From IMG/VR virus record IMGVR_UViG_3300025162_000019, positions 10,826 through 74,825 of that record: 64,000 bases of DNA, one strand, 5' to 3'. How positions within the stretch are numbered: position 1 is the stretch's first letter; every line of letters starts with the position of its first letter. Origin of the DNA: a virus (taxonomy: Duplodnaviria; Heunggongvirae; Uroviricota; Caudoviricetes). A program made the translations under genes and the position numbers. This document shows, one piece after another, positions 6,252-7,173 of the stretch. Under the pieces are notes generated by a model that worked only from the letters and a program-made list of their open reading frames with translations, did no database searches and had not been told where the DNA came from.

Positions 6252-7173
6252 ACAAAAAAGAGTCCTAAATTTTCTTTACACATATTTAATAGTTCGGTTT
6301 TATTCATTGGATCAAGTAATATATTTATCTTTGATACAAAGGTTTTCTCTATCATCTTATCATAGTTTATTTGTATAATACTATCAAACTCACTTGGCCA
6401 TCTTAAAAATGCCATTGCATCAAAACCATATTGATTCTTCATTAGATAAACCTTTTTCATCTTTGTTCCACTTTGTATCTCTTCATATTTATCTTCTATG
6501 TGTAAAATGTCAAGTAACTTTTTATAGTTTATCGCAGCTTTTACATGACTTGGTGTTCCCTTCTTAGCATTACCATCGGCAGTAATATACTTTTCAAGGT
6601 TAGATACACCAATGTTAGATGCTATTTCTTCAGGATAAACACCATGTAGTTTCTTTTTACACTCATCTATAATTTGTAATATTTCATCATCAGTTCTATT
6701 TTTCAAAATCATTTCCATAATAGTTTTTAACATTGGCCTTACTACTTCTGGTGTATCCGATCTAACAATTTCAAGTCCAGTTGTTTTAATCTTATTGGTT
6801 GACGCACCTTCTTCATCAACGATCCACATAGAATACTTTTTCTTCTTTACAAATAAGGCTGTCTTAGCGATAACTTCCTGTTTGAAAACAATCCTAAATT
6901 CTGTATTAGCAGAATTGTAAAACTCCCTCTGCATTTCTCTATAACAATGATCATTCACATATTCAGACAAAACATTCGCAATAGATTTAATATAGGATAA
7001 GAGCCTTTCTTCTGGCAACTTTCTCCAACTATCACCTAAGTTAGTATTCAAAAACCCACCAATATTTATAAAAAGTGAATCAGTATCTATCTTCAAATGT
7101 AGAGAACACTGTCATAACTAGACTTGCTCTCTACATTTTTTACCTCCATATTTTTATTTTCAATTATGCTCAT
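6248..7173 (-). CDS. 43: Family B DNA polymerase, C-terminal (palm/thumb) fragment, interrupted by an 8-nt insert (7095-7088)
   Basis: ATG7173 with SD AAAGGA reads ...DSVLYI then TGA; next frame reads IDTDSLF...KKKYSM...KTTGLEIVRSDTP; joining gives VLYIDTDS (motif C). Confidence 0.85.

Follow-up and report, generated by a model that had tools for sequence, protein, structure and literature searches.

A probable short translational hop within motif C of a split family B DNA polymerase gene in an uncultured T4-like phage

The gp43-type family B DNA polymerase gene (polB) on the minus strand of a 64,000-nucleotide (nt) stretch of viral DNA raises the question of how a replicative enzyme can be produced from a gene whose catalytic motif C is interrupted by a stop codon and a change of reading frame. 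The stretch, referred to below as the window, covers positions 10,826 to 74,825 of record IMGVR_UViG_3300025162_000019, a 189-kb IMG/VR virus with 30% G+C and an estimated completeness of 83%, which derives from an uncultured, T4-like phage of lake origin. The best named matches of the window polymerase are the PolB proteins of cyanophages (gp43) and of Microcystis phages, at 30–33% identity. The answer favoured here is a programmed short translational bypass, or hop: in the gene for the C-terminal subunit of this polB, split by homing endonuclease genes, the ribosome probably passes over a few nucleotides and restores the sequence VLYIDTDS. We infer this hop, the driving role in it of an RNA hairpin and of a Shine-Dalgarno-like (SD-like) motif, and any role of the skipped gap in immunity, from sequence alone.

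On the minus strand, a short open reading frame (ORF) starts at ATG 7173 behind its own Shine-Dalgarno (SD) sequence, and its 26 sense codons end with GTT CTC TAC ATT; these are followed by TGA, AG, ATA and then by GAT ACT GAT TCA, the codons for DTDS. This layout had already been described in a first-pass annotation of the DNA, and its coordinates agree exactly with the sequence. The DTDS frame, which runs to 6248, is −1/+2 relative to the short ORF, and motif C is whole only when the codon at 7098 is joined to that at 7087. The extra 8 nt between ATT and GAT are TGAAGATA. Unbroken relatives read ...MVAYGDTDSLYV across the junction, and the motif C region of intact relatives, ...NDMVAYGDTDSLYV, aligns with FVLYGDTDSIYV in the structure of the RB69 polymerase, whose motif C hairpin reads VLYGDTDS. 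In the alignment to gp43-like homologues, which had been proposed as a check, VLYI thus joins DTDS directly, and SVLYI/DTDS is therefore the ancestral and structurally required join, with 8 nt in excess.

The motifs by which family B membership was judged, namely Exo I–III, motif A (DxxSLYPS), motif B (KxxxNSxYG) and motif C (YxDTDS), are all found, spread over three ORFs and the short ORF, which identifies the enzyme as of gp43 type. No second PolB, and no PolA or DnaE, was found in the 189-kb record, estimated to be 83% complete; this supports a hop in an essential gene, and the other intact polB that the first-pass annotation had named as fatal to its proposal did not appear. Contigs from four sequencing runs in three studies, some of which may be the source of the IMG/VR record, were compared as DNA at 6900–7253, which they cover with zero differing or missing letters. 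No RNA run is listed among the public runs that hold this DNA. These identical contigs, together with 18 other distinct relatives in which the same codon boundary is broken, exclude an assembly error and confirm that the frame shifts inside motif C. Reading TGA as a sense codon under an alternative genetic code brings no rescue, as the next zero-frame codons are AGA TAG. Nor does a +1 frameshift of the prfB type, as the +1 frame is shut after four codons (GAA GAT AGA TAC TGA) and DTDS lies in the −1/+2 frame.

Relatives were collected by a protein search with the C-terminal ORF and then by retrieval of the DNA from viral and metagenome contigs, which gave 90 distinct junctions, some of them cited below by locus number (L). 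The protein search yielded dozens of C-terminal pieces of about 285–295 amino acids (aa), of two kinds. Many start M..D-Y-V-L-Y-x-DTDS and are cleanly split at the same cut as in the window, and the others start only two to twelve residues before DTDS. The broken arrangement is present in 19 of the 90 junctions, the window included, always at the same codon boundary. Each broken sequence has its own SD and ATG and a short ORF of 13–26 codons that ends D-Y/F-V/I-x-Y-x (19/19), and in each a stop codon leads the gap (TGA in 17/19, TAG in 2/19). A stop directly 3' of the take-off codon, as in bypassing of the T4 gene 60 type, is thus found throughout, in the window as TGA 7095–7093. In the 15 of the 19 whose upstream polB piece has an end that can be placed, the upstream split point is identical and the pieces lie 12 to 1091 nt apart; many split relatives without the break share this split point. 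With regard to a possible nascent-peptide signal of the T4 gene 60 type, the short ORFs resemble each other only at the polymerase residues D-Y-V-x-Y and at the codons under the SD-like motif. Protein identity to the closest relatives is only 54–60%; a megablast search with the polB region matched none of 50,697 phage records, and the exact 22-nt junction pattern was not found in viral contigs.

The distance from the last sense codon to GAT amounts to 2, 5, 7, 8, 10 or 11 nt in the 19 sequences, so that both the +1 and the −1 frame are represented, even among close relatives, and the join at the protein level, Y-x/DTDS, is constant in all of them. Gaps with common ends differ by 1, 3 or 4 nt; those of the Ser type, which measure 7, 8, 10 and 11 nt, all have TGA as their first and TTT as their last triplet. 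Since the length varies in this manner between shared ends, the gap behaves as non-coding, and since the offsets fall in both non-zero frames, one fixed frameshift is excluded, whereas a non-coding gap explains them.

The codon directly before GAT, where the peptidyl-tRNA would land, tracks the codon from which it would take off. The take-off:landing pairs are ATT:ATT (twice), ATA:ATA (twice), GGT:GGT, TGC:TGT, TCY:TTT (seven times), ATT:GTT (four times), ATT:CTT and, in the window, ATT:ATA. Their mean identity is 2.21 of 3 positions, against 1.49 for shuffled pairs (0/20000 shuffles as high), and triplets 1–2 nt off the landing position agree at 0.7–1.0 of 3. The codons are identical or synonymous in six relatives and near-cognate in the remainder; with G-U allowed, anticodon GGA pairs with UUU, and anticodon GAU with GUU, at all three positions. 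L006 and L098 differ by a paired second-position change (TCC..TTT versus TGC..TGT) around the same gap, TGAA. In L092 (ATA TAG AT) perfect re-pairing at +2 is available, and no ATG, GTG or TTG occurs in the DTDS frame. It is also worth mentioning that the phage carries a tRNA-Ile gene with anticodon TAT (UAU) at 45564–45654 (+), 91 nt long and lying within a cluster of 18 phage tRNA genes; judged by its anticodon, this tRNA would read the polB landing codon AUA.

The first-pass annotation had further reported a 13-base-pair (bp) stem over the take-off codon and the first U of the stop. Both the stem and its coverage are real; its length is 14 bp, with one G-U pair and a 16-nt loop (arms 7138–7125 and 7108–7095). 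The fold has a z-score of −2.9, and 2 of 200 shuffles fold equally well. All 17 sequences with offsets of at least 7 nt possess a co-varying hairpin of 11–17 bp that ends at the take-off codon. The two with the shortest offsets, +2 (L092) and +5 (L119), have identical take-off and landing codons and no hairpin. When the 17 hairpins are registered on the take-off codon (13 pair positions, 221 cells), standard pairs occupy 96.4% of the cells, compared with 34–56% when the partner is slid by 1–3 nt. Changes on both sides are seen at 8 of the 13 pairs, including those of the take-off codon itself (A-U with AUU, G-C with UCU) and that of the Tyr wobble base. G-U pairs exceed A-C combinations by 17 to 3 in this table, which indicates that selection acts on the hairpin as RNA of the sense strand. 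The residues encoded by the 5' arm are unrelated from one sequence to another. Relatives that are unbroken or cleanly split have stems of 3–9 bp at the same place, the one exception having 11 bp and a 45-nt loop. An RNAalifold prediction on a MAFFT alignment gave a weak consensus (−9.9 kcal/mol) with several 5' arms one column out of register, and was replaced by the table anchored on the take-off codon.

Upstream of the hairpin, at a distance of 4–9 nt, GGAG or GAGG occurs in 15 of the 17 hairpin-bearing sequences, against about 2% expected for a 10-nt window at the genome background of 0.0023 per nt. The codon phase of this SD-like motif varies (M-E-V in the window, K-G-D elsewhere). The GGAGG of the window lies 52 nt upstream of the landing codon in the linear sequence; with the hairpin folded, the distance shrinks to 8 nt (4 + 4), and in relatives to 8–15 nt. 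The 5' arm, being complementary to TAC ATT, reads ATG TAG or GTG TAG, 6–7 nt after the motif. The resulting minimal start-stop ORF is found in the window (7131–7136, minus strand), L033, L095, L096, L012 and L091; it is absent from the Ser-type cassettes and is thus probably a by-product.

Taken together, the use of both frames, the codon pairs and the hairpin support the hop of 8 nt from AUU to AUA in an essential polB that had been proposed from the window alone, and its course may be pictured as follows. A ribosome starting at ATG 7173 would read 26 codons and melt the 14-bp hairpin meanwhile, until AUU (Ile) occupied its P site and UGA its A site. About 12–15 nt 5' of the P-site codon lie within the 30S subunit, and the whole 3' arm should therefore be single-stranded when the take-off codon is in the P site; it would extend from that codon back to about the mRNA exit, with the 5' arm and the loop already outside. 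Slow reading of UGA would give the peptidyl-tRNA-Ile time to detach in place of termination. The hairpin would then re-zip behind the ribosome, and since re-zipping requires mRNA to be pulled out on the 5' side, the ribosome would move forward as 8 nt are drawn through it. Once the hairpin adjoins the gap, GGAGG probably pairs with the tail of 16S rRNA and helps to set the landing place, and the end state would resemble an initiation complex on a hairpin-bridged ribosome-binding site. With the peptidyl-tRNA re-paired at AUA (7090–7088) and decoding restarted at GAU, the predicted product is ...SVLYIDTDSLF..., with an intact motif C, a junction peptide SSYDSVLYIDTDSLF... and a tryptic peptide SSYDSVLYIDTDSLFINIGGFLNTNLGDSWR. 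Pairing of the mRNA on leaving the ribosome has been proposed as the driver of forward bypass in T4 gene 60 (bioRxiv 10.1101/2024.12.09.627546).

Several points weigh against such a hop. The window pair AUU/AUA matches at two of three positions, and with tRNA-Ile of anticodon GAU it entails a G-A clash at the third; UCY to UUU requires G-U at one or two positions, and AUU to CUU in L014 has a first-position mismatch. A nascent chain of 13–26 residues should be prone to drop-off. None of the 19 offsets is a multiple of three, though a hop independent of frame would permit such gaps. This absence mildly favours models of the frameshift type, the lineages being few and not independent, and it might reflect harm caused by read-through of an in-frame stop or too small a sample. 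As regards immunity, cleanly split relatives carry the same endonuclease family without a gap, and the gap is therefore unneeded for immunity to that enzyme. Finally, T4 genes 25 and 38 initiate by means of an SD and a hairpin that bridges to a downstream codon, and with a layout of this kind initiation or re-initiation after the hairpin is conceivable in polB as well.

This last process is the main rival of the hop and, on balance, an unlikely one. It supposes that the 26-mer is freed at UGA and that a new chain begins at TTG 7096, either by re-initiation after termination or by direct initiation from a split ribosome-binding site, through the GGAGG that the hairpin brings near; the polymerase would then consist of four chains, one of them a micro-peptide providing the VLY strand. 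TTG and the stop do overlap as TTGA in the window and in those relatives with offsets of 8 or 11 whose take-off codon ends in T, ATGA-type gene overlaps are common in the window, and the conserved SD-like motif with its hairpin resembles the bridged sites of the two T4 genes. A start at TTG 7096, which the first-pass annotation had listed as a threat to its own reading, is however not general: in the nine sequences with offsets of 7 or 10 the TTG overlapping the stop is out of frame and the only in-frame starts lie inside the hairpin, as by-products of I-D-Y-V, and L092 lacks any start codon in the DTDS frame. Where starts exist, they are by-products of NNT-TGA or of TAT-GTN (Tyr-Val) codons. 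Re-initiation, moreover, does not predict that the codon before GAT should track the last codon of the short ORF, and it would cut the catalytic beta-hairpin one residue ahead of the first Asp.

A conventional frameshift at the stop (−1 or +2 here, +1 in other relatives) would translate the gap into ...VLYILKIDTDS or ...VLYIKIDTDS, with the extra residues tolerated, and is quite improbable. The lack of offsets divisible by three is what it requires, stop codons are classical A-site stimulators of shifting, and upstream hairpins that refold are reported to favour forward shifts. The direction of the shift would nevertheless have to vary among close relatives, one to four variable residues would be inserted directly before the catalytic Asp of a motif whose spacing is otherwise invariant, and the matched landing codons would be left unexplained. 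Re-pairing in the P site would be poor both at −1 (CAU) and at +2 (UUG). As for a programmed −1 frameshift in particular, the sequence C UAC AUU UGA contains no X XXY YYZ heptamer, the fold has no downstream structure and the relatives need the opposite frame; this candidate was rejected.

Removal or skipping of the 8 nt at the RNA level, whether by cleavage and ligation or by polymerase slippage at the hairpin, would give an in-frame mRNA, and the exact coincidence of the hairpin end with the edge of the insert, as well as the RNA ligases and end-healing enzymes encoded by T4-like phages, might speak for it. It is nonetheless very improbable. No Rfam family matched within 5000–11500 at E values up to 1, whether intron or ribozyme, and introns are therefore not involved; the insert has no conserved 3' boundary except the landing codon and no homopolymer for slippage, and matching codons at its two edges are not predicted. 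A group I or II intron, or an intein, at the window break was rejected on the same Rfam result and on the abutting ORFs, inteins being found only in relatives. That polB is dead or decaying, or that its sequence is an assembly error, is most unlikely despite its three interruptions and the selfish endonuclease genes around it, given the identical contigs from three studies, the retention in 19 variants of the short ORF, SD, ATG, D-Y-V-x-Y, hairpin and an open 280-codon frame, and the lack of any other replicative polymerase in the record.

Gap, hairpin, short ORF and split appear to belong to one mobile DNA segment, which passes from one phage polB gene to another by gene conversion that the putative endonuclease would drive. 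A maximum-likelihood tree built on the C-terminal part shows gapped genes mixed with cleanly split and with unbroken ones, and its well-supported branches force at least 12 changes of the label "gapped". Counted from DTDS, the gapped L098 and the unbroken L114 share 100% DNA identity over −1300 to −480 and again over +300 to +720; within the approximately 780 nt from −480 to +300 their identity is 54–67%, with graded edges. L014 and L107 display the same pattern over −178 to +119. Both tracts are the result of gene conversion centred on motif C. The 55 residues after DTDS are not more often nearest to a gapped allele than the more distal parts (9, 10 and 10 of 19), and conversion tracts are visible only in pairwise comparison of DNA. 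Homologues of the 356-aa endonuclease of the window occur at the same split in seven cleanly split loci (L028, L067–69, L077, L078 and L081), with a remnant in L055. An endonuclease at the insertion site, a patchy distribution and conversion tracts with graded flanks, the marks of a homing cassette, are thus all found. Between its two polB pieces L098 has a 119-nt spacer (1342–1460) without an endonuclease gene, in which a short frame contains C-x2-C-x-G-K; this zinc-ribbon-like sequence, of the sort present in the window endonuclease, may be an endonuclease remnant.

Three stages can be distinguished: endonuclease, split and gap together, as in the window; the gap without the endonuclease, as in most gapped relatives; and the split without the gap. 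They mirror the decay series of MobA and gene 60, in which the insert protects its carrier, and by analogy the gap may protect here. Relatives also contain inteins at two positions in motif C, D/TDS and DTD/S (L005/L051, L081, L124; P0026, P0029, P0074), and in L006 and L008 a further intein lies in the exonuclease part (N pieces of 926–930 aa). Selfish elements of several kinds converge on the polB region, a hotspot for them.

The arrangement of the region is given in Table 1. Its ORFs abut or overlap, with 0–35 nt between them.

Table 1. Coordinates of the polB pieces, endonuclease genes and signals of the proposed hop in the window
Feature	Position	Strand	Description or basis
polB fragment 1	10566..11012	-	148 aa with the Exo I motif DIE; alignment places it at the N-terminus of L003, an intact relative of 905 aa
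GIY-YIG homing endonuclease gene between polB fragments 1 and 2	9824..10531	-	Pfam GIY-YIG, E 6e-4; PHROG homing endonuclease
polB fragment 2	8265..9824	-	519 aa; Pfam DNA_pol_B_exo1 and DNA_pol_B
Free-standing homing endonuclease gene between polB fragment 2 and the short ORF	7195..8265	-	356 aa; Pfam; PHROGs phrog_559, 681, 3339
Shine-Dalgarno AAGGA of the short ORF	7181..7185	-	7 nt before ATG 7173; sequence
Short ORF, 26 sense codons, MSIIENKNMEVKNVESKSSYDSVLYI	7096..7173 (stop to 7093)	-	First strand of the motif C hairpin
Internal Shine-Dalgarno-like GGAGG	7143..7147	-	4 nt 5' of the hairpin
Hairpin 5' arm	7125..7138	-	Co-varies with the 3' arm
Hairpin 3' arm	7095..7108	-	Spans the codons for Tyr and for take-off, and the U of UGA
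Take-off codon ATT (Ile)	7096..7098	-	Assigned by comparison with relatives
Proposed untranslated gap TGAAG, beginning with the stop TGA 7095-7093	7091..7095	-	Sequence
Proposed landing codon ATA (Ile), peptidyl-tRNA re-pairing	7088..7090	-	Landing codons track take-off codons in relatives
Resumed polB frame: DTDS (7087-7076), rest of palm, thumb, stop 6250-6248	6248..7087	-	Pfam DNA_pol_B; PHROG DNA polymerase
282-aa ORF starting LKIDTDS	7096-6248	-	From TTG 7096
Second endonuclease gene, directly after polB	5364..6251	-	295 aa; Pfam and PHROGs; 55% identical to the 356-aa endonuclease

Fragment 2 comprises the exonuclease domain, motif A (DMDITSSYP) and motif B (KIIINAIFG), and its C-terminal end reads ...NEPNKELKEILDKMKNEIGKM, followed by the stop. 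Its first 45 or so residues (MEYEYVDV...DDNTWKPF...) correspond to nothing in the intact L003 and may be an added tail for reassembling the pieces. The 356-aa endonuclease combines zinc-ribbon repeats with a nuclease domain of the Vsr/MTES_1575-like type; a sequence search of the PDB with this protein gave no significant match. At the 3' end of its gene, at 7223–7256, the contig depth in lake metagenomes is 10–20 times that of the surroundings and many contigs break; the endonuclease family is multi-copy in the phage or in the community.

Among known systems the closest is the 50-nt bypass of T4 gene 60, connected with the MobA homing-endonuclease element (Manning and Atkins, bioRxiv 10.1101/2022.08.31.505936, where Bonocora et al. 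2011 is cited). In both cases a free-standing endonuclease gene divides an essential replication gene, whose downstream piece opens with a short coding stretch (46 codons in gene 60, 26 in the window), and the take-off codon has a stop directly after it, then a non-coding gap and a landing codon; one tRNA reads both codons in gene 60 and would have to do so in the window. In both, too, the cassette is mobile, recently inserted and able to outlast the endonuclease, some lineages keeping the split and losing the gap. The window differs in that its gap is of 5 nt rather than 47, which leaves no room for a take-off hairpin in the A site; in that the hairpin is an upstream one whose 3' arm contains the take-off codon; and in that the SD-like motif is 5' of the hairpin and not inside the gap. 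The host gene is polB, the endonuclease is not of the MobA-HNH type, there is no sequence homology, and the codon match is often only near-cognate. The survey of gene 60 found bypass cassettes in topoisomerase genes only.

Candidate short bypasses with gaps of about 10 nt, for which a 5' stem-loop and a flanking SD were proposed, have been described in the terminase of the Streptomyces phage phiHau3, where the junction peptide was found by mass spectrometry in E. coli (PMC10732093). The window site shares with it the short gap in a phage gene and, as proposed stimulators, a 5' stem-loop and a flanking SD-like motif; the phiHau3 take-off, by contrast, takes place at a rare UUA codon with a regulatory rationale and not at a stop, no homing endonuclease or split gene is involved, and the few natural examples provide no co-variation series. 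In E. coli reporters, tRNA hopping over stop or slow codons was reported by Weiss et al. 1987 and O'Connor et al. 1989; there the peptidyl-tRNA likewise detaches before a stop and re-pairs a few nt downstream irrespective of frame, and the hops are of low efficiency, mostly synthetic and without dedicated stimulators, whereas the window site belongs to an essential gene and has conserved signals. Phages related to T4 can have a gp43 gene that is split or bears an intron (Petrov et al. 2010, cited in PMC2993671); PolB is there a target of mobile insertions and can function as two polypeptides. That work describes no recoding, and the window gene is in three pieces with a frame break in motif C. 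A literature search, with most subscription journals outside its reach, found no report of recoding in phage polB. What would be new here is a bypass of short range, situated in the catalytic motif of a split PolB and accompanied by an upstream hairpin that holds the take-off codon.

Programmed bypassing is among the rarest decoding events; T4 gene 60 was an isolated case for decades, and short natural hops number only a few candidates. The polB site offers a natural mutational series of 19 variants with offsets from +2 to +11 in an essential and easily assayed enzyme. In this series the hairpin, confined to the longer hops, and the codon match, full or near, vary, and the SD-like motif keeps a nearly constant folded distance; pairing of the exiting mRNA as the driver, the range over which the ribosome can be pulled and the match needed at the landing codon are all testable through it. 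Annotation pipelines call such polymerases truncated or pseudogenes, as in the 282-aa call in Table 1, and phylogenies of T4-like core genes built on such calls miss the first strand of motif C.

Two further sites in the window have a comparable layout. In a gene for a DHH-family phosphoesterase (549–700, plus strand) a 44-codon ORF ends ...FHIDL (CTT), followed by TGACGATG and CTT GAT GGC; the take-off and landing codons are identical, the proposed join restores HxDxDG, GGAGG precedes by 4 nt a hairpin of some 19 bp, the 3' arm of which ends at the stop, and an endonuclease-like ORF (2–571) lies directly upstream. In a metallophosphatase gene (63053–63100, plus strand) the 10-codon ORF MGKLYFTADT (ACC) is followed by TGAA and ACT CAT, with D-T-H restored; the 5' arm of its 13-bp hairpin is in the upstream gene for a 292-aa endonuclease (62174–63052), the ATG is in the loop, and GAGAGGGA stands 5' of the hairpin. 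A genome-wide scan for perfect hairpins of at least 11 bp that end at a stop and are accompanied by a long ORF in a shifted frame found the metallophosphatase site as well as the polB one and missed the DHH site, whose stem is bulged; with 59 matches, mostly ordinary gene junctions, the scan proved unspecific and was rejected as a means of detection.

It is an evenly balanced proposal that short hop cassettes are a general device of homing-endonuclease elements in large freshwater phages, one that would rely on efficient hairpin-driven sliding and occur at no fewer than three sites in this genome (polB, the DHH phosphoesterase and the metallophosphatase). Such a cassette would consist of the SD-like motif, a hairpin that is open while the P site holds the take-off codon, the stop and a gap of 2–11 nt. 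If this is true, the inserted bases would break the target of the endonuclease within an invariant catalytic motif and leave the protein unchanged.

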